From Cenarchaeum sp. (GTDB taxonomy: Archaea; Thermoproteota; Nitrososphaeria; Nitrososphaerales; Nitrosopumilaceae): DNA of 64,000 bases. The position numbers and the translations under genes were made by a program. Shown piece by piece: positions 52,333-63,078 of the stretch. The DNA is taken from contig CBDESU010000002.1 of assembly GCA_965242695.1 (NCBI GenBank), positions 1,024,001 through 1,088,000 on the forward strand, in the 5' to 3' direction. Each line of letters begins with the position of its first letter. The first letter of the stretch is position 1. Under the pieces are notes generated by a model. The model searched no databases and had not been told where the DNA came from. It saw nothing but the letters and a program-made list of their open reading frames with translations.

Positions 52333-52706
52333 CACACGGCTGCTCCTCTTTCTTTGTTTTTTCCAGGCGCGGGGGGCCCTGCGTTGCCGTCCGAGCGCAG
52401 GCGGGGCGGGCAGGGCGCCGTACGCGCCCCTCCCAGGACGCCAGAGGGCCAGCAGGCGGCCTCGTACGGGGGCTGCCGGCCCCGGCAGGCGCGGCGCGAG
52501 CATGGCTAGGATAGGGCGCGCGGCCTGCCTCCAGGGGCTGGCGGCAGGGGCAGGGCGAGGCGGGGCAGCCCCCGCCCGCCCGCCCCCCTTCCGCCGCAGC
52601 GGACAGCAGGGGGCATGGGGGACGCGCTAGCGGGCGAGGCGGGGCGGCCCCCGCCAGCCCCGTGCCGCGGCCCTCCGCGCGCCCCCCGCCCGCCCCGCCA
52701 TCCCCG

Positions 52707-54410
52707 TCACCACACGATCTCATTGATCCGGTCGGCGAGCTCGGCCTTGTCCGAGTGCCTCTTGCACAGCATCTCGGCAAGCCCCTGCGCCCTTTCGCCG
52801 GCCCCGCCGGCCGGAACCTCGGCCATGCACTGCAGGTGCAGCGCGATCCTCCTGCAGGCCAGGCCACTGCGCGCAGCCGCCGCCGCCTTTTCGATGCTGT
52901 ACTGGTACGCCAAGAGGTACGACTTTGGGAACCTGCCGCCGAGGGCCTCGCGGTAGCGGTCGAGAAGCTCGGCATCGCCGAGCCCAGCGAGCGCCTTGAG
53001 GGCCCTCTTGTGCATGCCCTCGCCCACGAGCAGGTCTAGCAGGTGCTCGGGATGCCTCTTGTCCTTTTCCATCTCGGCGATCAGCCTGCCGCGCGCCGCC
53101 GGCCAGTCGTCCGACTCTTTCTTGAGCAGGTCGAGGCGGGCCTGTCCGTGCGACCCGAGGTACAGCCGCTCGAGCAGGGCGCACCGCGCCGCCGTGTCCT
53201 CCCGCCCGATCGCCGCAAGGGCCGCATCGGCCAGGTCGTCGTTGTCGCCGAACCTGCCGATTCCGTCCGTGGCCACCTTTAGGGCCCGGCCGCCCTGCCC
53301 CTCCCGCAAGAGGTGGCCGGCGTACGCCGCGTACGTCTCGGGCCCCGCCGCCCCGTGACCCGCAAGCATCTTTTCGGCCGCGCCGGCATCGCCGAGCCCG
53401 TCCATGGCGGCGACCTTGACGGCAAGCATCAGCCGCCCCATCTCCAGCTCGAGCCTCTTGGCCCTGCTCAGGTTCCCGCCCTTTAGCTTTACGAGGCCCC
53501 TTTTCCCCGCGCCGCCGGCGCGCCCGCCCTTTGGCACATGGGGCTCGACGGCGGACAAGAGGTGTCGCAGGCCATCGCCGGGCGCGCATGCGGCCCACAG
53601 GGCCGCCATGTGGTCGCCCCTGAAGCGCGCGTCGGCCGCCCTGTAGCGGCCGAGCATGTCCCTGATGCGGGCCCTCGCATCCCTGGCCGTGCTTTTCTTG
53701 ATCCTGGCCGTGCACAGACCAGCGCCGGCGATCGACTCGCGGATGGCATCGTCGTACGCGCCGTCCTTCCCCGCGCCGGCCGCCGCCGCATCGGCAATCT
53801 GCCAGTGCACGCGGGCCGCCTCGGCGTAGTCGCCTGCCCTTTCAAACCGCCTTGCCACGGCGGCGAACGGGCCGAGGTCGACTCTTGGTTCGTCGCCTCC
53901 TCTCCGCCCCTTCCGCGCGCTGGACCTTGCCCTGGAGAACAGCGCGGCGATCTTTTTTCGGTGGTCCGTCCCGGCCTCCGCATCCCACATCATTCCGCTG
54001 CCGAACCTCTCGGCAACCGAGCGGTCGCCCTCCATCTCGCCGGCAAGAAAGCGTCTCATGTACTCTGGGGACGACTCGTCGAGCATGGACTTGATCTCGG
54101 CCCGCGCCTCCTCTGCACTGCGGCGCATCTCGGCGCCGTGATCCACCATGTACAGGAGGACCGCCACGACATGCTTGCATGCGCCGCCCCAGTCGTACGG
54201 GCACGTGCAGTGGTACGGGAGGCGGCCGCCCTTGCGCTCCTCCGCCCACACCTGGTAGGTGCGCGTGCCCCTGACCTCGGCGCTCACCCTGTTCCCGTCC
54301 AGGCTCACAGACGAGACGCGCCCGGTCCTGTAGTACGTCCTGCCCCGCCCGTACGACCTCTGGTTGCAGATCTGCCTGACGTCCTCCACCGCCAGGCTGC
54401 CCAGGTCCAT
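52707..54410 (-). CDS. SWIM zinc-finger protein
   Basis: RGRTYY..V.G...Y.V, CTCP..CKHVVAVL; helical C-terminus. Confidence 0.82.
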   Translation of the reverse strand: MDLGSLAVEDVRQICNQRSYGRGRTYYRTGRVSSVSLDGNRVSAEVRGTRTYQVWAEERKGGRLPYHCTCPYDWGGACKHVVAVLLYMVDHGAEMRRSAEEARAEIKSMLDESSPEYMRRFLAGEMEGDRSVAERFGSGMMWDAEAGTDHRKKIAALFSRARSSARKGRRGGDEPRVDLGPFAAVARRFERAGDYAEAARVHWQIADAAAAGAGKDGAYDDAIRESIAGAGLCTARIKKSTARDARARIRDMLGRYRAADARFRGDHMAALWAACAPGDGLRHLLSAVEPHVPKGGRAGGAGKRGLVKLKGGNLSRAKRLELEMGRLMLAVKVAAMDGLGDAGAAEKMLAGHGAAGPETYAAYAGHLLREGQGGRALKVATDGIGRFGDNDDLADAALAAIGREDTAARCALLERLYLGSHGQARLDLLKKESDDWPAARGRLIAEMEKDKRHPEHLLDLLVGEGMHKRALKALAGLGDAELLDRYREALGGRFPKSYLLAYQYSIEKAAAAARSGLACRRIALHLQCMAEVPAGGAGERAQGLAEMLCKRHSDKAELADRINEIVW

Positions 54411-54889: not shown

Positions 54890-55192
54890 ATGCCAATCGC
54901 AATACTGCCAGACATCGACGAGCAGAGGTGCATCGGCTGCGCACTGTGCGTCGAGATCTGCACGTCCCTTGGCCCCGACGTACTCCGCGTAAAGCCCGTA
55001 GAGGGCTGGAAGCGCGGCAAGGCGTTCGTGTTCTATCCCGAAAGGTGCATCTCGGACGGCGCATGCATCGGCGTGTGCCCGACCAAGTCCATCTTCTGGA
55101 TGAGGCCCATGACCTACACCGCAGGACAGCCTGTGCCCCTCCACAAGAACGGAGTCTTCGTGAAGGGCTGGGCCGAGGACGCGGCCCTCTAG
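54890..55192 (+). CDS. Dicluster ferredoxin
   Basis: CIGCALCVEIC and CISDGACIGVCP; tttaaata at ~54857. Confidence 0.9.
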   Translation: MPIAILPDIDEQRCIGCALCVEICTSLGPDVLRVKPVEGWKRGKAFVFYPERCISDGACIGVCPTKSIFWMRPMTYTAGQPVPLHKNGVFVKGWAEDAAL

Positions 55193-56766
55193 GGGCGCGC
55201 CCTGTCCTTTTTTATTCCAATCTTGGAGAGGGGGATCCTGCGCACCCCCTCGGTCCGCCTGGCAAAGTGGGCCAGGAACCTGTCCGACGGGTGGTAGTAC
55301 AGCGCCTCGAACCGGTTGCCGGCCATGAACGCCTCCCATGTGGCGGCGAACTCGGGAAAGGCGGCCGGGTCGCGGGGCGCGCCGCTCTCTACGCAGTGGG
55401 CGGCGGGGTACAGGTCGGACAGCTCGGCCGGCACGAGGCCAAGGAACGGGCTGTACTGGCAGAACTGGACGGCGGCCGAGCCGCCGTCGACGCCCGACCT
55501 GTCGGAGTCGAACGCCCGCTCGAGGGCGGCAAGGGCGGCCGAGCCGTACGCCGGCCTGCCGGCCCGGGCAGTCACGCACACGGCCGCCTTGCCCCTGGCC
55601 GAAAAGGCCCTGACGGCCCGGTGGTATGCGGCGACCTCGGGCCTGTACTGGTCTAGCGCATCAAAGAGGAACACGGCCTTTGGCTTGAAGGCCGGCGTCG
55701 TGCCGACCATTGCGGGGCCCCCCTCCCTGGCCAGGACGGCGGCCGCGTCGGCGAGCCGCGGGTGCGCCCTGGCCTTTCGCATTGCATACTCCCACAGGCG
55801 GCCCTCGTGTATGGCCTGCCTCGTGCGGGACACCTCGGACTTGATGGCGTGCAGGTTGTGCACGGCGATCCTGCGGGCCCTCTCGGCCCCGTCGGGCACG
55901 GCGAGCAGCTCGGCCGGCGTGTGGGATGCGCACACGGGGCAGCAGCAAGAGAACTCGGCGATCTCGGAGAGGTGCCGCGTCGCGTCGCCCGAGATGTACC
56001 TGTCCTGCCGGGCGTACAGCATGTACGATGCGGAATCGAACGTGTCGCAGCCTAGCGCGACGGCGAGCGGTATGGTCAGCGGGTGGCCTGCCCCGAACAG
56101 GTGCAGCGGCGCGCCGGCCGGCATGGCCGACCTGGCCGCGAGTATCATGCGAGCCAGGTCGGCGAACCTGTACGCCTCCATGAACTCTACGGGGCTGCCG
56201 AGCGCGAGCAGCCTGTACCCGCACCGCGACAGGGCCCTTGCCGAGCCCGCAACAAGGTCCAGGTGCTCGCCGCCCTGCACGGGGCCTGCCCATATGCGCC
56301 TGCCCGACCTTCTGTCGCCGCGCGATATCGTCCGCCTGGATATCCTCAGCGTGTGGTCGACCGACCTCTTGGCCTCTTTGCGCGGCAGGCCCATGCCGGT
56401 CGGCCTGTCGAGGGGGACCGCCACGTCCGTGCCGATGGCCTCTTCGTACGCCGCCATGGCCTCTGGGTCCACGCCCACGTCGCCGTACTCTAGCACCTGG
56501 TAGCCGCCCGAGTCGGTCATTACGGGACCGTCGTACCCGATTATGCCGTGTATGCCGCGCCTGGCCGCCTCGTCGCCGTGCCTCTTCATCGCTATGTAGG
56601 CGTTGGTGATGACCATGTCGAACCCGACGGCGGCCACCTCGGCCGCCGGTATGCTCTGCTTGACGGGGTGTATGACGGGAACGAACGCGGGCGTGCGCAC
56701 GGCGCCGTGCGCCGTGTGCAGCAGCCCGATGCGGCCGCCTAGGTCGCAACGCACAACCTCGAACAT
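55189..56766 (-). CDS. tgtA: Archaeosine tRNA-guanine(15) transglycosylase
   Basis: TPAFVPV, TDSGGYQ, VQGG, HLFGAGHP, FDSASY, CCCPVC. Confidence 0.92.
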   Translation of the reverse strand: MFEVVRCDLGGRIGLLHTAHGAVRTPAFVPVIHPVKQSIPAAEVAAVGFDMVITNAYIAMKRHGDEAARRGIHGIIGYDGPVMTDSGGYQVLEYGDVGVDPEAMAAYEEAIGTDVAVPLDRPTGMGLPRKEAKRSVDHTLRISRRTISRGDRRSGRRIWAGPVQGGEHLDLVAGSARALSRCGYRLLALGSPVEFMEAYRFADLARMILAARSAMPAGAPLHLFGAGHPLTIPLAVALGCDTFDSASYMLYARQDRYISGDATRHLSEIAEFSCCCPVCASHTPAELLAVPDGAERARRIAVHNLHAIKSEVSRTRQAIHEGRLWEYAMRKARAHPRLADAAAVLAREGGPAMVGTTPAFKPKAVFLFDALDQYRPEVAAYHRAVRAFSARGKAAVCVTARAGRPAYGSAALAALERAFDSDRSGVDGGSAAVQFCQYSPFLGLVPAELSDLYPAAHCVESGAPRDPAAFPEFAATWEAFMAGNRFEALYYHPSDRFLAHFARRTEGVRRIPLSKIGIKKDRARP

Positions 56767-56804
56767 GCCGCACCGGCCGCGGCGCGCCATATTATTCGAG
56801 TGCG

Positions 56805-57392
56805 CTACGGGCCGGGCGGAAAGAACCTTCCCAGGTCGCCGCGCTCGGCGACAAGGGAGAGCCAGTCGACCTGGTCGCCGCGCGGGGCCGGTTCCCTGCC
56901 GTCCCAGCCGAGCGCCGCGGCCGCGGCGCGGGCAGTCTCGGCGGAGCTCCTGCAGGTCGTGTCGATCTGGATTGTTCTCCCGGGGCCGGCAAGCTGCGCC
57001 GCATCGTGGGCGACGACGCCGAGTATCTCGGCGCCGAGGTTGCCGGCTGCCTTGTCCCACCCGTACTTTCTCTCCGCGTACACCCGTTCTAGCTCGTACG
57101 GGCTGCGCCTGAGCACGACCGCGGCGCCGACCCGGCTGGCGGAGAGAACGTACGGGGCAAGGTGCCCGACGACGAGGCACTTTTCGTCAAGGGCGCCGTG
57201 GGAACGCAGGCGCTCGGCGAGCCGGTCGGGATCGACGTCCGACGTGCGCGAGGCCGCGTCGTACTCGCACAGCCCATATTCGGCGGCAAGCGCGTTGAGG
57301 TCCACCAGCCGCAGGCCGAGCCACGCGGCTGCAGCCGCGGCCGCCGTATGCTTGCCGGTGCCGGGGCTTCCGGTGAGGACGGGGATGCGCAT
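56805..57392 (-). CDS. Adenylate kinase, AK6/Fap7 family
   Basis: TGSPGTGK, VVGH, R..RKY..K..N..AEI. Confidence 0.82.
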   Translation of the reverse strand: MRIPVLTGSPGTGKHTAAAAAAAWLGLRLVDLNALAAEYGLCEYDAASRTSDVDPDRLAERLRSHGALDEKCLVVGHLAPYVLSASRVGAAVVLRRSPYELERVYAERKYGWDKAAGNLGAEILGVVAHDAAQLAGPGRTIQIDTTCRSSAETARAAAAALGWDGREPAPRGDQVDWLSLVAERGDLGRFFPPGP

Positions 57393-57574
57393 GCGGCCGC
57401 CTCGCAGCAGGCCTGTTATACGGATTGCCGCCCTCCCTTCCGGCGGTGCGGCGCTAGCATCAGGGTTGCCCGGCCACAATCTGGGCATATCTTGAGGCTG
57501 CGCGCACCGCGGCGGTTACTACGGCGGCGCCCCTGCTAGCGGTCCGGTGAGAGTGTCGCTCGGCCAGATGCACG

Positions 57575-58123
57575 CTAGTCGGCGAACGGCTCATCGTCTG
57601 GGTCAAACTGCACCAGCACAACTCGAGCTATTTCATCCTCGCAGAACAATGCCGTATCTCCCACGCGGATCCTCGACCCGTCGTTCTTGAGGCGCCTTGG
57701 ATCCCCCAAGACTATCTCCCTCCGCGGTTCGTCATCGCCTGACGAATTCTTGATCCAGCCATAGTAGCGCTTCGACGATGTGGTATAGACTACTACGTAC
57801 TTGCCTATGTTGTCCAGCATGAAGCTGAACCATGGAGTGTGCCGGCTCATCCGCGATCTCCATACCCTCTTTAGCACATAACCCGCCACCGCACCGTATG
57901 CCAAGGCGATGCCCGATTGGACGGCGATGAGCACGGGAATGTTGCCTACGCCAACGACGGCGGCGGCTGTGAGATAGCTTGGTATGGTCAATGCCAAGCT
58001 GTAAAAGACAAACTGTACCTGCGACTGCACCTCCTTGTACGATGCAATGTACCGTATGAGGAAAAGCGTGTAAAACCCAGGCAGCGCAAAAAACAAAAAG
58101 GCGGTGGGGGTTAGGTCAGTCAT
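57575..58123 (-). CDS. DUF6338-like membrane protein
   Basis: FALPGF, three TM segments, PW, YYGWI..S..EIVL; lower GC. Confidence 0.65.
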   Translation of the reverse strand: MTDLTPTAFLFFALPGFYTLFLIRYIASYKEVQSQVQFVFYSLALTIPSYLTAAAVVGVGNIPVLIAVQSGIALAYGAVAGYVLKRVWRSRMSRHTPWFSFMLDNIGKYVVVYTTSSKRYYGWIKNSSGDDEPRREIVLGDPRRLKNDGSRIRVGDTALFCEDEIARVVLVQFDPDDEPFAD

Positions 58124-58223
58124 CTTCGATCGGTATTATCGGCTTTCCCTTGGTTGGAACCGGTTCGGATGCGGAGAGCGAGTGGCCGGTCTCACTCTTC
58201 CATTTTCCACGCGAGGTGCCCAT
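58116..58223 (-). CDS. 35-aa micro-protein, copy 1 (MGTSRGKWKSETGHSLSASEPVPTKGKPIIPIEDD)
   Basis: TTTATATA ~25 bp upstream; end overlaps the start of the DUF6338-like gene; paralog at 58813. Confidence 0.7.
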   Translation of the reverse strand: MGTSRGKWKSETGHSLSASEPVPTKGKPIIPIEDD

Positions 58224-58334
58224 TGCAGGGCGCCGCCCCCGCACCCTATATAAACCCCGCCTTGTAGCGCACTGCCCGATGCCCGTGCAGCCCCGCCTAA
58301 TTTTATATGCCATCGATTTGGCCCCACTGCCACG

Positions 58335-58538
58335 ATGAGGTGTGTCAAGCCGCTAAGCGACCGCCAGTGGAAGATGGTCGTGGATCAGCTGAAGAAGGGA
58401 CCCACGCCGGAGATGATCCGGACGGTAGAGTATGCCAAAGAGCACGTCAAGTACATAAAAGAGGTGGACTATAACGAGCACATGGCCAAGTACCGCAAGA
58501 GAGAAGCCAAACAGGGTAGCCGTTCCAGCACGCCTTGA
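58335..58538 (+). CDS. Small basic hypothetical protein (67 aa)
   Basis: TTTTATAT at ~58301; clean ORF. Confidence 0.6.
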   Translation: MRCVKPLSDRQWKMVVDQLKKGPTPEMIRTVEYAKEHVKYIKEVDYNEHMAKYRKREAKQGSRSSTP

Positions 58539-58812
58539 GCCTGTGCTAGGCCTTGGTGTGCGGGCTCAACAAACGCTGTAGGGATGTTGCAGCGCTACCA
58601 GCTGGGGCGTGAATTGGATGCGGATGTGATGGATAATGTGGTTGTAGCGGATGCATCTCGGCAACCATAGGATACGTGGCCCGAGCGTGACGACTCTCGT
58701 CAAAACCCGCGCCCGGCGCAAGTTTGCTTGACTTTTGGGCAAAAATGTGCTTGGTGGACCTACTAAGAGAGATGGCCGCGTCAAAACGCATGTCACATGC
58801 GGCGTTGGAGGG

Positions 58813-58920
58813 TCAGTCGTCTTCAATCGGTATTATTGGCTTTCCTTTGGTTGGGACAGGCTCTGAGGCATAGATGGCCTCGCCGATCCTCACTTTTGGC
58901 TCTTTGTTTTTGCCACTCAT
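58813..58920 (-). CDS. 35-aa micro-protein, copy 2 (MSGKNKEPKVRIGEAIYASEPVPTKGKPIIPIEDD), absent from the ORF track
   Basis: Hand translation; last 18 aa identical to copy 1 with different codons; GTTATAT upstream. Confidence 0.7.
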   Translation of the reverse strand: MSGKNKEPKVRIGEAIYASEPVPTKGKPIIPIEDD

Positions 58921-59330
58921 TAAGCCCCGCCGAATCCCCCTCCAATATAACTTTATTGCCCTAAAGCCCCGCTGTGTAGGCGCGCGCCTAGTTGCCGGTC
59001 TAGGCGTGAGTCCGCAGGCGGATGAGGCCGCCTTGCAGTGACAGGCGGGGGGCAGTGCCGCCGTGCCGTGGCAGGTCCATGTTGAGGGCCCGCCATGGCC
59101 GTGATGCCTTGGTCAGCAGACAACAGGCGCGGCACGGCCCCGGGGCTTGGCATGCTCGCCGTGGCGTCGTGCGCCGCTGTGTCGAGCAGGGGCGATCGCC
59201 TGCGTGCAGGGGGGATGGGCGCCAGGACTGCCAGCCGCCGAAGCAATGGGCAACGGGACTAGGCGGGACTTGAGCGCGCATCCGGCATGCCGCCGCCAAT
59301 CGTTTTAACCGTCCTCCCAGCCGGCCGCCC

Positions 59331-60311
59331 GTGGCGGACAGCGGCGGCAGCGACGGCGACTGGCGCCCCTGCCGCATCATATGCGGGGATGCTCGCGAAG
59401 TCATGCGTTGCATGCCGGGCGAGAGCGTCGACCTGAGCTTCTGGTCGCCGCCCTACTTTGTCGGCAAGTCGTACGAGCAAGACCTGGACTTTGACGGATG
59501 GCGCTCGATGGTCGCCGACGTGGTCGGGCAGCACAGGCGCGTCGTAAGGCCCGGCGGGTTCATGGTCGTCAACATCGCCGACATACTGTGCTTTGTGGAT
59601 CCGGACATGCCGCGCATACAGGCCAACTCGCTCTCGCGCAAAAAGGTGCCGATCACGAGGGAGGACGTGCAGAGGACCCTGCGCGACCATCCGGGTGCGA
59701 ACCGGGACGAGATTGCCGCCATCCTCGGGTGCAGCGAGCAGACAGTGCAGCGGCGGCTAGAGCACAACAACGTCCGCGGCGGCAAGTCGATACCCGGCAC
59801 GCGCGTGCTCCTTACGAGCGCGATGGTCGTCGAGTGGGCCGCGGATGCCGGCCTCTACCTGTACGACAAGCGCATATGGCACAAGGATCCAGCATGGATG
59901 AGCAGCAGGTGGCACACGGGGTCGTACCGGGCCGTCGACGAGTACGAGTACGTGCTGGTGTTCTGGAACCCGGGCATTACCGAGTACGACAGGGATCGCC
60001 TGACGGCGCCCGAGTGGGGCGAGTGGGGATCGCGCGGCGTGTGGAACATACGGTCGGTCGCGCGCAACGCCCGCCACGAGGCCGAGTTCCCCGAAGAGCT
60101 TGCAAGGCGCGTCATACGGCTGTTCTCGCCGCCCGGCGGCACCGTCCTGGACCCGTTCGCAGGAACCGGGACGACGACGGCCGTGGCGGCCATGGAGGGC
60201 CGCCGGTGGGTCGGCATCGAGCGGGACCGTCGCTACGCCGACATGGCGCGCACCCGCACCCGCTCGCTGCTCTCAGCCGCGCCCCCTGCCGGCGCCCCCG
60301 CCCAATCCTAA
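59331..60311 (+). CDS. Orphan beta-class N4C/N6A DNA methyltransferase with an inserted HTH
   Basis: WSPPY, HEAEFPEEL, VLDPFAGTGTT; insert RDEIAAILGCSEQTVQRRL. Confidence 0.85.
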   Translation: MADSGGSDGDWRPCRIICGDAREVMRCMPGESVDLSFWSPPYFVGKSYEQDLDFDGWRSMVADVVGQHRRVVRPGGFMVVNIADILCFVDPDMPRIQANSLSRKKVPITREDVQRTLRDHPGANRDEIAAILGCSEQTVQRRLEHNNVRGGKSIPGTRVLLTSAMVVEWAADAGLYLYDKRIWHKDPAWMSSRWHTGSYRAVDEYEYVLVFWNPGITEYDRDRLTAPEWGEWGSRGVWNIRSVARNARHEAEFPEELARRVIRLFSPPGGTVLDPFAGTGTTTAVAAMEGRRWVGIERDRRYADMARTRTRSLLSAAPPAGAPAQS

Positions 60312-60312
60312 T

Positions 60313-61557
60313 ATGGGCGCCGCCCGCGGCCGCACCGTGCAGATAGGGATACTCGGCAAGGCCAACGTCGGCAAGTCGACGCTCTTCTCGGCGGCCACCG
60401 AGACGGACGTCCCGACGGGCAACTTTCCGTTCACGACCGTAAAGCCAAACGTCGGCGTCGCCCACGTGCGCGCCCCCTGCCCGTGCAGGGACCTCGGGAT
60501 TGAGGACCACGACCACCCCGCATGCTCGGCCGGCACTAGGCTCGTTCCCGTGCAGCTCACGGACGTGGCGGGGCTCGTGCCGGGCGCCCACGAGGGCAGG
60601 GGGCTCGGCAACCAGTTCCTCGACGACGCCAGGCAGGCGGCCGCCCTGGTGCACGTAGTCGATGCAGCCGGCACGACCGACCTGCAGGGGCAGCCGGTCC
60701 CTGCCGGCACGCACGACCCCGCCGAGGACGTAGAGTTTGTCGAGGCCGAGTTCGACATGTGGATCGCGGGGCTGCTCGCGCGCGAGTGGCCCAAGCTCAC
60801 GCGCGAGACCGACCAGAAGGCGGCAGGCGCGGCCGAGGCCATTGCGCGCCGGCTCAGCGGCCTGGGAATAGGCGAGGCGCACGTCCGGGAGGTGCTCGCA
60901 TCCGAGGGGCTGGCCGGAAAGAGGCCCGCCGAGTGGTCCGATGCAGACAAGTCGGGGTTTGCGTCGGCCCTGCGGCGGCGCACAAAGCCGGTCGTCATTG
61001 CGGCCAACAAGGCCGACCTGTGCGGCGATGCAGAGGGCGTTGCGCGGCGGCTGGCCGGGGCCGGCGGTGGCGGGGACGGCAGCGAGGCCCGCCGCGTCGT
61101 CTTGTGCAGCGCAGAGGCCGACCTGCTGCTGCGCCGCGCCGCCAAGGCCGGCGCGATCAAGTACTCGCCCGGCTCGGCATCCTTCGAGCCGGGGGAACTG
61201 ACGGCCGACCAAGAGAGGGCTCTCAAGCTCGTCTCGGATACGGTCCTCTCGCGGCTCGGAACGACCGGCGTGCAGGAGGCCCTAGAGGCGGCCGTGTTCG
61301 GGCTGCTCGGCATGATCGTGGCGTACCCCGTAGAGGACGAGGGCAGGTACTGCAGGCGCGACGGAACGGTCCTGCCCGAGGCGCTGCTGCTCCCGCCCGG
61401 CTCGACGGCAAGGGATCTTGCCGGCGCCGTCCACGCCGATCTTGCCGGCTCGCTCCTGCACGCGATAGACTGCCGCAAGAGGCAGCGCATCGGCGCCGAC
61501 CACCAGCTCGCCGACGGCGACGTCGTAAAGGTCGTCTCGGCGGCGGCCCGGGGGTGA
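60313..61557 (+). CDS. ychF: YchF/OBG-family translation-associated NTPase
   Basis: GKANVGKST, FPFTT, DVAGLVPGAHEGRGLGNQFL, NKAD, TGS domain. Confidence 0.88.
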   Translation: MGAARGRTVQIGILGKANVGKSTLFSAATETDVPTGNFPFTTVKPNVGVAHVRAPCPCRDLGIEDHDHPACSAGTRLVPVQLTDVAGLVPGAHEGRGLGNQFLDDARQAAALVHVVDAAGTTDLQGQPVPAGTHDPAEDVEFVEAEFDMWIAGLLAREWPKLTRETDQKAAGAAEAIARRLSGLGIGEAHVREVLASEGLAGKRPAEWSDADKSGFASALRRRTKPVVIAANKADLCGDAEGVARRLAGAGGGGDGSEARRVVLCSAEADLLLRRAAKAGAIKYSPGSASFEPGELTADQERALKLVSDTVLSRLGTTGVQEALEAAVFGLLGMIVAYPVEDEGRYCRRDGTVLPEALLLPPGSTARDLAGAVHADLAGSLLHAIDCRKRQRIGADHQLADGDVVKVVSAAARG

Positions 61558-61564
61558 CCGCGCC

Positions 61565-62707
61565 GTGCTGTGCCTTGGCGTCGAGAGCACGGCCCACACG
61601 TTCTCGTGCGCCGTCCTCGAGCGGGGACATACGGGCCGGATGCGCATCCTGTCGGACGTGCGGGCCGTGTACAGGCCGCCGAGCGGCGAGGGCATCCACC
61701 CGCGCGAGGCCTCTCGCCACCACGTGGACAACGCCCCGCGCGTCCTGTCCGAGTGCCTCGCAGGCGCCGGAGTCGAGTCGGCCGCCTCGCTAGACGCCGT
61801 CGCCTACGCGGCGGGGCCCGGCCTGGGCCCGTGCCTGCGCGTCGGCGCCGTCGTCGCAAGGTCGATCTCGGCGTACTATTCCGTCCCGATACACCCCGTA
61901 AACCACGCCGTCGGGCACATCGACCTCGGCATGATGCTCACAGGAGCGTCCGACCCGCTCGTCCTGCTCGTCTCGGGCGGCCACACGATGCTGCTCGCGT
62001 TCGTCGGGAACAGGTGGCGCGTGTTCGGCGAGACGCTCGACATTACCCTCGGGCAGATGTTCGACCAGTTCGGCCGCTCCCTCGGGTATCCGTCTCCGTG
62101 CGGGAGGCAGATAGAGTCGCTTGCGGGGGCGGCGGCATCGCGGGCAGACGGCGCCGGGGAAGGGGGCGCCGAGTCCCCGTACGTCCCGCTCCCGTACACG
62201 GTAAAGGGCAACGACGTGTCCCTGTCGGGGCTGCTCTCGGCGGCAAAGCGGGCCGCCGAGGAGCACGGCCCCGAGGCGGCATCGTACTCGCTGCAGGAGA
62301 CTGCATTCGCCATGGTATGCGAGGCCGTCGAGAGGGCCCTGTCGTTTACGGGCCGCACCGAGCTGCTCGTCGTAGGCGGCGTGGCAGCCAACGCGCGCCT
62401 CTCGGGAATGCTGCGCAGCGCGTGCAGGAGGCAGGGGTGCAGGCTGTACGCGGCGCCGCTAAGGTACGCCGGCGACTGCGGCTCGCAGATTGCGTGCACG
62501 GGCCTGCATGTGGCGTCCGCGCCGCCAGCGCCGCGCCCCGCGGGCCGTGGCCGCCGCGGCCGCCCCGGTCGGGCGGGCTCGGCCAAGGGCGCCGGCGTCG
62601 CCCTGCGCGACGCGTTCGTCAGGCAGTCGTGGAGGCTCGACGGGGTCGACGTAGAGTACCGCGGCGGGAGCCGCCGCCAAAGCCGCCGCGGCGCGGGCCG
62701 GGCCTAG
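61565..62707 (+). CDS. kae1: KEOPS t6A tRNA threonylcarbamoyltransferase
   Basis: LGVESTAHT, GPGLGPCL, NHAVGH, SGGHT, GETLD, GGVAAN. Confidence 0.92.
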   Translation: MLCLGVESTAHTFSCAVLERGHTGRMRILSDVRAVYRPPSGEGIHPREASRHHVDNAPRVLSECLAGAGVESAASLDAVAYAAGPGLGPCLRVGAVVARSISAYYSVPIHPVNHAVGHIDLGMMLTGASDPLVLLVSGGHTMLLAFVGNRWRVFGETLDITLGQMFDQFGRSLGYPSPCGRQIESLAGAAASRADGAGEGGAESPYVPLPYTVKGNDVSLSGLLSAAKRAAEEHGPEAASYSLQETAFAMVCEAVERALSFTGRTELLVVGGVAANARLSGMLRSACRRQGCRLYAAPLRYAGDCGSQIACTGLHVASAPPAPRPAGRGRRGRPGRAGSAKGAGVALRDAFVRQSWRLDGVDVEYRGGSRRQSRRGAGRA

Positions 62708-63078
62708 GGCTTGCCTGCGTCGCCGGCGGGGGGGCTGCCGCTGCCGGCCGCCTTTGCATCGGCCATCGCGTCCTGTATGGACTCGAGCCAGCCGCCGCTG
62801 CCGAGCACGCCGAACTTGAACGTCTCCTCGGAACCGTCGCCGCCCCTGGCCGCGCCCTTGACGCAGACCTTCTTCATGAGCAGGCCCTCCTTCCACGCGC
62901 GCGAGACGCTGCCGAGGGGCATGTCGACGACGGTCTCGCCAAACTCCTTCCTAAAGTCCATGATGCGCCCCTTTGTCTTGTCGAACGCGAGCCTCCTGTT
63001 CGTGAGCGTCAGTATGCCGACGCCGAGCCTGTCCTCGCTGCAGTCCTCCTGCCTGAGCCGCTTCTCGCCCTCTTCCAT
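62704..63078 (-). CDS. Small PH/GRAM-like domain protein
   Basis: GILTLTNRRLAF pattern; ttatat upstream. Confidence 0.65.
   Translation of the reverse strand: MEEGEKRLRQEDCSEDRLGVGILTLTNRRLAFDKTKGRIMDFRKEFGETVVDMPLGSVSRAWKEGLLMKKVCVKGAARGGDGSEETFKFGVLGSGGWLESIQDAMADAKAAGSGSPPAGDAGKP

Follow-up and report, generated by a model that had tools for sequence, protein, structure and literature searches.

An intact two-gene cassette in the genome of Cenarchaeum sp. joins the gene of a micro-protein of 35 amino acids (aa) to that of a membrane protein of the family DUF6338 (Pfam PF19865), and this cassette is a real, self-contained unit carried on an inserted accessory segment. The cassette lies on the minus strand of a stretch of 64,000 nucleotides (nt) from a sponge-associated archaeon of the Nitrosopumilaceae (assembly GCA_965242695.1, contig CBDESU010000002.1, positions 1,024,001 to 1,088,000), hereafter called the window. 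A second, solitary copy of the small open reading frame (micro-ORF) is found in the same window and a third elsewhere in the genome. The micro-ORF is coding and under selection, its position before DUF6338 is conserved, it overlaps the start of its partner gene and the segment that carries both genes has been inserted.

Because proteins of fewer than 50 residues usually remain unannotated, systems that rely on micro-proteins go unseen. Here we present as new a third micro-ORF, five related micro-proteins from metagenomes, small ORFs upstream of DUF6338 in nine out of nine other genomes, the predicted architecture of DUF6338 itself, the insertion setting of the cassette and a parallel in bacteria. 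A limited literature search found no published account of a pairing between a micro-protein and DUF6338. Similar pairings in bacteria and in a phage-plasmid suggest an overlooked two-part system.

Results

Protein-level selection on the micro-ORF

The two 108-nt ORFs with TATA boxes that a first-pass annotation of the window had reported are both present on the minus strand, each with its TATA box 23 nt 5′ of the ATG (Table 1). The two copies encode identical residues in their last 18 codons, although 9 of these codons differ, with 9 synonymous and 0 non-synonymous changes. All 9 base changes are in third positions, an outcome that has a probability of about 5e-5 if changes are even over the codon positions. 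The annotation had taken the many synonymous codons of this identical C-terminus as a sign of protein-level selection, and the codon counts bear this out. The first 17 codons are of another kind, with 15 differing codons of which 14 are non-synonymous and 1 synonymous. Thus, the N-terminal halves are variable as had been claimed; they are basic only mildly, the isoelectric point of the whole micro-protein being 6.1-6.5 for both window copies. In its C-terminal half the third copy shows 6-7 synonymous and 4 conservative changes relative to copies 1 and 2. A strain variant of the micro-ORF 1 protein, P0017, has 5 N-terminal residues changed and none in the C-terminal half.

The conserved block of 54 nt might instead act as a DNA or RNA element or belong to a gene on the opposite strand and be open in the micro-ORF frame by coincidence, in which case the micro-ORFs would not be genes at all. 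One antisense frame has its wobble positions in common with the sense frame, and copies 1 and 2 agree there in 16 of 17 residues. However, all 10 micro-ORFs examined are open in the sense frame and no antisense frame is open in all of them, and both the third copy and the micro-ORF of archaeal locus L009 contain stops in all three antisense frames. Over the three genomic copies the sense frame conserves 14 of 18 residues versus 11 of 17 for the antisense frame, and the distance from TATA box to ATG is 23 nt in every copy. An Rfam search of the micro-ORF region returned 0 matches at E up to 1. The presumed mRNA (58226..58070) has no special fold, with a z-score of +0.80 and 162 of 200 shuffled sequences folding at least as well; neither an alternative RNA structure nor a sequestered downstream start was seen in this comparison. 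We regard the explanation that the micro-ORFs are not genes as largely refuted and very improbable, and the micro-ORF as very probably a real protein gene tied to DUF6338.

Organization of the cassette

Micro-ORF 1 was listed as part of a 65-aa ORF (58116..58313), within which an internal ATG at 58223 gives the 35-aa form. We prefer the shorter form because the TATA box lies 23 nt 5′ of its ATG, because the identical spacing is found in copy 2 and in the third genomic copy, and because all database relatives of copy 1 are 35 aa long. Given this spacing, the mRNA of micro-ORF 1 would be leaderless or near-leaderless.

The stop of copy 1 overlaps the DUF6338 start (GATGACTGA), and the 8-nt overlap, ATGACTGA, can be read as the annotation had described it. 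Equally as described, copy 2 has ACG instead of ATG at its junction (GACGACTGA) and no intact partner follows. The roughly 9 codons after that junction, TTDPPTPHV, resemble MSDPPFAHI, the N-terminus of the homologue P0003; beyond this 9-codon relic there is no DUF6338 similarity, and tblastn of P0003-P0010 against 58200-59000 gave nothing significant.

The micro-proteins are hydrophilic (grand average of hydropathy -0.3 to -1.6), contain 7-23% proline and have no signal peptide, hydrophobic segment or cysteines. Modelled alone, the micro-protein is without secondary structure (predicted template modelling score 0.17) and is probably disordered.

Predicted fold of the DUF6338 protein

The 182-aa protein matches the Pfam DUF6338 model over residues 7-151 with 34.7 bits (E 1.7e-8), above the gathering cut-off of 26.5. 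Archaeal relatives score 25.8-47.4 bits against the same model and bacterial ones 105-168 bits. An AlphaFold2 model was built on 19 sequences, with a mean predicted local distance difference test score of 82.6. Its helices at residues 5-27, 35-57 and 62-91 are read as three membrane-spanning helices. Residues ~92-173 are modelled as an Sm-like barrel composed of a helix (97-104) and five to six strands over 109-170, in which the N-terminal helix and the bent five-stranded antiparallel sheet of the Sm/LSm fold are both found.

Structure comparison points the same way. Foldseek ranks archaeal and eukaryotic Sm/LSm proteins on top (E 2e-4, target TM 0.83-0.87), and so does VIA-align (Z 11.3, root-mean-square deviation 1.6 Å over 74 residues). 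At the sequence level the family profile has a sole match among PDB sequences, the Sm protein 1th7, with a marginal E of 0.18. We consider the barrel fold to be predicted with confidence. The barrel would be in the cytoplasm and the N-terminus outside, because the basic stretch KRVWRSRMSRH follows the third helix (positive-inside rule). We take three membrane helices combined with an Sm-like beta domain to recall MscS-like channels; no MscS entry is among the top structure matches listed, where the abundance of single-domain Sm proteins could mask such a match, and Pfam MS_channel gives no match at E up to 1.

Further archaeal copies and relatives

Searching the whole genome with the peptide by tblastn, as the annotation had advised, revealed a third micro-ORF (MAKSSKIPRVKLGESLYAAEPLPVKGKPIIPMEDD, C2:1578253-1578357) that likewise ends in ATGACTGA, with a 54%-identical DUF6338 paralogue coming after it. 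In this third cassette the DUF6338 ATG and the gene body are one base out of frame (C2:1578353-1578380, locus L006 1487-1514). The break falls within the first ~8 codons, and past the TGA of the micro-ORF the body continues in the micro-ORF's own frame. A gene that has recently become a pseudogene, a T-rich run that was misassembled or some other cause may lie behind this.

The three copies, all lengthened by five upstream codons (40-aa minimum), were combined into a profile, which was run against a collection of 5.8 billion proteins and returned 8 micro-proteins, 3 from this genome and 5 from other metagenome assemblies. The stretch EPxPxKGKPIIP[IMV]EDD is kept in all 8. P0013 is identical to the micro-ORF 1 protein, P0017 from another strain is 86% identical to it, and P0014 is 97% identical to the micro-ORF 2 protein. 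The entire island is also found on contigs from other sponge metagenomes, two of them ~99% identical and one ~90%. The 90% strain contig carries 159 differences and 11 indels over 1.6 kb, and its DUF6338 gene has an uncompensated 1-nt insertion near codon 16. A protein Atlas search with the micro-protein produced no usable match.

The DUF6338 subfamily is patchily distributed, being carried by 3 of 61 relatives, 10 of 401 genomes of the family and 5 of 27 genera; no other family carries it among two samples of 401 genomes of the phylum. Following the proposal to scan upstream of DUF6338 homologues, we found an ATG-started ORF of 33-47 aa directly upstream and on the same strand in all nine other genomes with a match, two of which (G104 and G120) are identical over the cassette stretch. 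The annotation had named a lack of such ORFs before homologues as grounds for refutation, and its finding passed this check. These ORFs have a TATA-like box ~25-30 nt before the ATG, and they end anywhere from a 4-nt overlap to 46 nt before the DUF6338 start. When the upstream DNA is shuffled, a comparable ORF arises in 5-26% of the trials, depending on the locus; multiplied over the 9 loci this gives 1e-9, a figure that overstates independence since these loci are related.

Near and distant micro-proteins have a core in common, S-[VLI]-x-A-[SAQ]-x-P ... K-x-K-P, and the distant core [ES]-S-V-x-A-[SQ]-x-P-[KV]-[RG]-x-K-P aligns with S-L-S-A-S-E-P-V-P-T-K-G-K-P of the window copies. When the near-group profile is run over 704 ORFs, the top rank goes to the micro-ORF of L011 (E 0.0017) and the second to that of L007 (E 0.13); the reverse search is not significant. 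Position and composition of the archaeal micro-ORFs are thus strongly conserved and their sequence only faintly.

Individual loci add some detail. Two genomes of one genus, G366 (L023) and G393 (L025), have the same cassette with micro-ORFs that differ by one residue, and the DUF6338 gene of G393 has a frame shift mid-gene. At L005 (G019, 684-760) the DUF6338 5′ end is overlapped, near a repeated TGAC, by a TTG-started MTD... reading frame that is not the frame of the gene body; the start candidates of DUF6338 at this locus are a GTG at 731 and an ATG four codons downstream. Natural fusions of micro-protein and DUF6338 were considered and rejected, the 24-32-residue N-terminal extensions of homologues being amphipathic and not proline-rich. 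Programmed read-through was likewise rejected: copy 3 and L010/L011 have micro-ORF and DUF6338 in a common frame, but their stop codons are not the same (TGA, TGA, TAA) and each is followed by a start.

DUF6338 homologues number 722 in the representative library at E up to 0.001. DNA of the DUF6338 relatives was found nowhere outside the family in scans of genome contigs or viral contigs, a metagenome scan for such DNA gave one uninformative 1-kb fragment (L002), and tblastn of the window DUF6338 protein against plasmids and phages gave nothing.

The inserted segment and its neighbours

GC content is 53-60% over ~57500-59000 versus ~70% in the flanks and ~67-68% in the genome. The kinase-like gene that flanks the segment on the left here and the GTPase gene on the right, beyond the methyltransferase, are only 88 nt apart in the same-genus genome G001, so we place an insertion at ~57500-60330 in the present genome. 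It contains DUF6338, both micro-ORFs, a 67-aa gene and a type II DNA methyltransferase (Table 1). In seven other archaeal loci the cassette has different neighbours (ilvD, an ammonium transporter with PII, succinyl-CoA synthetase, TFB, transposases, a KAP NTPase), and because they differ in each of these loci the micro-ORF and DUF6338 travel as a unit. No modifying enzyme, transporter or signalling enzyme is a conserved neighbour in the seven loci.

Table 1. Features of the inserted segment, in window positions
Feature	Position	Strand	Description
DUF6338 gene	57575..58123	-	182 aa; Pfam PF19865; ATG within the last codons of micro-ORF 1
Micro-ORF 1	58116..58223	-	108 nt, 35 aa + stop, MGTSRGKWKSETGHSLSASEPVPTKGKPIIPIEDD; first of the two cistrons in the intact cassette
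TATA box of micro-ORF 1	58247..58254	-	TTTATATA, 23 nt 5′ of ATG; read directly
Micro-ORF 2	58813..58920	-	108 nt, 35 aa + stop, MSGKNKEPKVRIGEAIYASEPVPTKGKPIIPIEDD; solo copy, DUF6338 partner lost
TATA box of micro-ORF 2	58944..58951	-	GTTATATT, 23 nt 5′ of ATG; read directly
Relic of second DUF6338 5′ end	58794..58820	-	ACG replacing ATG, then TDPPTPHV; resembles P0003 N-terminus
67-aa gene	58335..58538	+	MRCVKPLSDRQWKMVVDQLKKGPTPEM...; divergent from micro-ORF 1, between the micro-ORFs
Type II N4/N6 DNA methyltransferase	59331..60311	+	Pfam N6_N4_Mtase 1.4e-35; PADLOC MTase_II 7.4e-110
Inserted accessory segment	57500..60330		GC profile and synteny with same-genus genome G001

The 67-aa gene has ~20 paralogues over both contigs, with 28-58% identity by tblastn and a common PLxxxxW...GPTPE core, and it has no family or structure match in Pfam, NCBIfam or PDB. 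The idea that it is an insertion-sequence-like mobile repeat was rejected, DNA similarity to the paralogues being confined to the coding part. This gene is a passenger of the island rather than a recognised part of the module. At residues ~110-145 the methyltransferase carries an inserted helix-turn-helix; next to its gene there is no recognisable restriction enzyme. In the left flank (55189-57488, minus strand) lie an archaeosine tRNA-guanine transglycosylase-like gene and a Fap7/adenylate-kinase-like gene (AAA_18), in an order that is conserved in same-genus genomes. Two further regions of the window, 52400-52850 and 62450-62750, reach a GC of 78-85% versus ~70% locally.

Small proline-rich proteins beside bacterial DUF6338

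The distant archaeal-type homologue P0029 matches a gene of the Klebsiella phage-plasmid pJN2-26, and that gene matches 20 plasmid records. We examined 11 bacterial loci, 10 of the 20 plasmids and the phage-plasmid, a small sample confined to these two kinds of element. The range of 105-168 bits given above for bacterial proteins is that of ten of these loci, all but Streptomyces (L035). At seven loci (Klebsiella, Proteus, three Acinetobacter species, Mesorhizobium and Sphingomonas) one or two small ORFs of 43-64 aa come after DUF6338, from a 17-nt overlap to 166 nt downstream. They combine GY[QKST]P repeats with a PPKKP, PPRKK or GGKK tail, and two of them are unannotated.

The neighbours of bacterial DUF6338 include TIR, caspase, SLATT with nucleotidyltransferase, MPN, type I restriction and toxin-antitoxin genes. 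At L027, L028, L032 and L036, DUF6338 stands within 10-20 nt of conflict-system genes: Proteus has TnsE/TIR/caspase there, Acinetobacter a large MPN/JAB protein, Mesorhizobium a nucleotidyltransferase with SLATT and Gordonia a type I restriction enzyme.

A published case comes from Pseudomonas stutzeri. PMC10433244 (Anal Chem 2023) describes three novel proline-rich proteins of 36, 47 and 41 aa (SEP1/SEP5/SEP2), each detected with 44-114 spectra by mass spectrometry and placed in a predicted operon with the DUF6338 protein Pstu14405_RS12030. According to its supplementary tables, the three genes lie in tandem just downstream of DUF6338, and an OLD-family nuclease and a superfamily 1 helicase adjoin. 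The authors consider these proteins confined to P. stutzeri and possibly encoded by de novo genes, and assign no function to them. No Pfam or NCBIfam model covers the bacterial or the archaeal small proteins. The link between the two domains rests on size, composition, tail and position, because no homology was found.

Discussion

The first-pass annotation had proposed a peptide/membrane-protein module, such as a ligand-receptor pair, an antitoxin-pore pair or a regulatory leader. The module itself has gained a third copy, five database proteins and the upstream ORFs of all nine further genomes, while the leader and ligand-receptor forms have lost ground. We give about an even chance to the reading that the micro-protein is a trans-acting partner of DUF6338, a reading favoured by the difference in gene order between the archaeal and the bacterial pairs. 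In that reading the TATA box would drive a leaderless bicistronic mRNA whose first cistron is the 35-aa hydrophilic, proline/lysine-rich peptide. Because the second cistron starts inside the last codons of the first, DUF6338 would be made in step with the peptide, translated through re-initiation by ribosomes that have just completed it. The peptide would then act in trans as a small partner of DUF6338, its conserved stretch EPxPxKGKPIIPxEDD docking on the cytoplasmic Sm-like domain. Once docked, it may restrain a membrane-perturbing DUF6338 oligomer as the small member of an antitoxin-like or defence-effector-like pair would.

That the two genes form specifically an antitoxin-like or defence pair is a tentative proposal, which we think possible but doubtful. 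The antitoxin-like form is the specific form we prefer, as it accords with the location on islands and plasmids, the patchy distribution and the presence of several paralogous copies. The type II methyltransferase in the same insertion and the conflict-type genes beside bacterial DUF6338 add to an accessory or conflict context. Broader and more speculative still is the idea that DUF6338 and its micro-protein or micro-proteins constitute a widespread, unrecognised two-component conflict system of archaea, bacteria, plasmids and phage-plasmids. In such a system a membrane-anchored Sm-like ring would be gated by a tiny, disordered, proline/lysine-rich peptide, whose release or loss would let the ring damage the membrane. 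The pairing would have been overlooked because the peptides evolve so fast that their versions look orphan or 'de novo'.

Several results weigh against a trans-acting partner and its defence forms. The archaeal peptides are predicted products and their binding to DUF6338 is a proposed one. Similarity between near and distant archaeal micro-proteins is weak, with an hhalign E of 0.0057 at 6% probability. A profile of 10 bacterial small proteins found no archaeal micro-ORF among 878 ORFs, the best hit (E 0.86) being an unrelated ORF, and the archaeal/bacterial likeness could be convergence or coincidence. No small ORF was recognised in 4 of the 11 bacterial loci (Fluviibacter, Rhodococcus, Streptomyces and Gordonia). 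Neither PADLOC-DB 2.0, at E up to 0.1, nor PHROGs has a family or model that matches DUF6338 or the micro-proteins. Neighbours of the cassette in the seven archaeal loci are mostly housekeeping or unidentified genes, and the defence reading therefore leans on the bacterial contexts. Finally, DUF6338 is broken beside an intact micro-ORF in four cassettes (copy 2, copy 3, the 90% strain and G393) and the reverse occurs in none. We rejected this asymmetric decay as evidence for an antitoxin: the micro-ORF makes up ~16% of the target, which gives a chance P of ~0.5, and the asymmetry proves nothing.

Alternatively, the micro-ORF could be a cis-acting leader that delivers or stalls ribosomes for DUF6338, by re-initiation or proline stalling, with a functionless peptide. 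The stop/start overlap in all three copies of the genome is what such a leader would have, and the conserved last 18 residues correspond approximately to the capacity of the ribosome tunnel, with the N-terminus free to vary. Proline-rich runs (PPP, KPK, NPP) are found in distant homologues, and a Shine-Dalgarno-like sequence is not obvious before the DUF6338 ATG. However, the small ORF lies downstream of DUF6338 in 7/7 bacterial or phage-plasmid loci that have one and also in P. stutzeri, a point that counts only if these ORFs are equivalents of the archaeal ones. The distant archaeal core lies 8-12 residues away from a C-terminus that varies, the archaeal stop-to-start distance ranges from -8 to +46 nt and the leader RNA is of ordinary structure. 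Moreover, the solo copy 2 is intact and has its near-identical counterpart P0014 in the database, and the P. stutzeri proteins are abundant and stable products. A pure cis leader is unlikely because the bacterial order is reversed, the core-to-stop distance varies, the solo copy persists and the P. stutzeri proteins are abundant; we consider this explanation improbable.

The peptide might also be the product itself, being exported or modified or acting as a signal or an antimicrobial, and DUF6338 would then export it, confer immunity to it or serve as its receptor. Paralogous small ORFs that stand in tandem, one half conserved and the other variable, are seen in the window, P. stutzeri, Acinetobacter and Sphingomonas. 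Such one-half-conserved tandem ORFs recall precursor-peptide gene arrays. The solo copy persists without a partner, and DUF6338 is also reported from biosynthetic gene clusters (PMC10433244). Against this, the peptides lack a signal peptide, hydrophobic segment and cysteines, no conserved modifying enzyme or transporter accompanies them in the seven archaeal loci, and the conserved non-membrane part of DUF6338 is predicted to be a cytoplasmic Sm-like barrel. The ligand-receptor form suggested at first finds no support in a peptide devoid of export signal, and we judge the peptide-as-product explanation quite improbable.

Whatever the biological role, DUF6338 gains a predicted architecture, a recurrent small partner and a setting of islands, plasmids, a phage-plasmid and defence-gene neighbourhoods. 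By our analysis the P. stutzeri proteins seem to belong to a recurring pattern that extends to proteobacterial plasmids and, in reversed order, to ammonia-oxidiser-type archaea. A two-gene construct makes the function of DUF6338 directly testable, and the cassette offers a case in which to study how a disordered peptide can evolve fast and yet remain matched to its partner.

Among known proteins, the P. stutzeri SEPs (PMC10433244) are like the archaeal micro-proteins in being small (36-47 aa), hydrophilic, proline-rich and encoded on the same strand adjoining DUF6338. They have a basic proline tail and lie in tandem with some ORFs overlapping, and their expression is proven by the spectra. They differ in being downstream of DUF6338 and in having no detected homology to the archaeal peptides, a comparison made with their plasmid relatives and not with the SEPs themselves. 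The plasmid GYQP...PPxKK(P) proteins, including that of pJN2-26, share the partner family (PF19865, 105-134 bits), the size class, the one or two tandem copies and a proline-rich basic tail, with a spacing of -17 to +166 nt; several are annotated as 'hypothetical protein'. These differ from the archaeal micro-proteins in their reversed gene order and in their sequence, which sets them apart as a family of its own with GY[QKST]P repeats.

Small proteins that regulate membrane proteins include AcrZ, which acts on AcrB, and MgtS, which acts on MgtA, and such regulators are themselves membrane helices. The micro-protein here is, in contrast, hydrophilic. As for its partner, residues 92-173 of the DUF6338 model superpose on archaeal Sm proteins, N-terminal helix included; unlike Sm, LSm and Hfq proteins, the predicted barrel is fused to three membrane helices and its sequence similarity to them is marginal (E 0.18). 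Cap15 of the cyclic-oligonucleotide-based signalling system CBASS is an abortive-infection membrane effector that consists of membrane helices and a small ligand-binding barrel. DUF6338 would share with Cap15-type effectors the N-terminal membrane helices and a compact cytoplasmic beta-barrel, and its bacterial members adjoin defence-type genes. It differs from them in the type of barrel, in having no PADLOC match and in having no conserved signalling-enzyme neighbour in the archaeal loci.

Type II toxin-antitoxin pairs, adjacent co-transcribed small genes with coupled translation, are the remaining comparison. The peptide of 35 aa differs from their antitoxins in having no DNA-binding domain, and, unlike known type II toxins, the putative toxin would be a membrane protein that carries an Sm-like domain. 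The likeness lies in two short genes with a stop/start overlap, here of 8 nt, behind a single TATA box from which both would be co-transcribed, and in an upstream, partly disordered small protein with a conserved part that would face the partner. The cassette further resembles these pairs in its accessory island, its patchy distribution and its several paralogous copies per genome.

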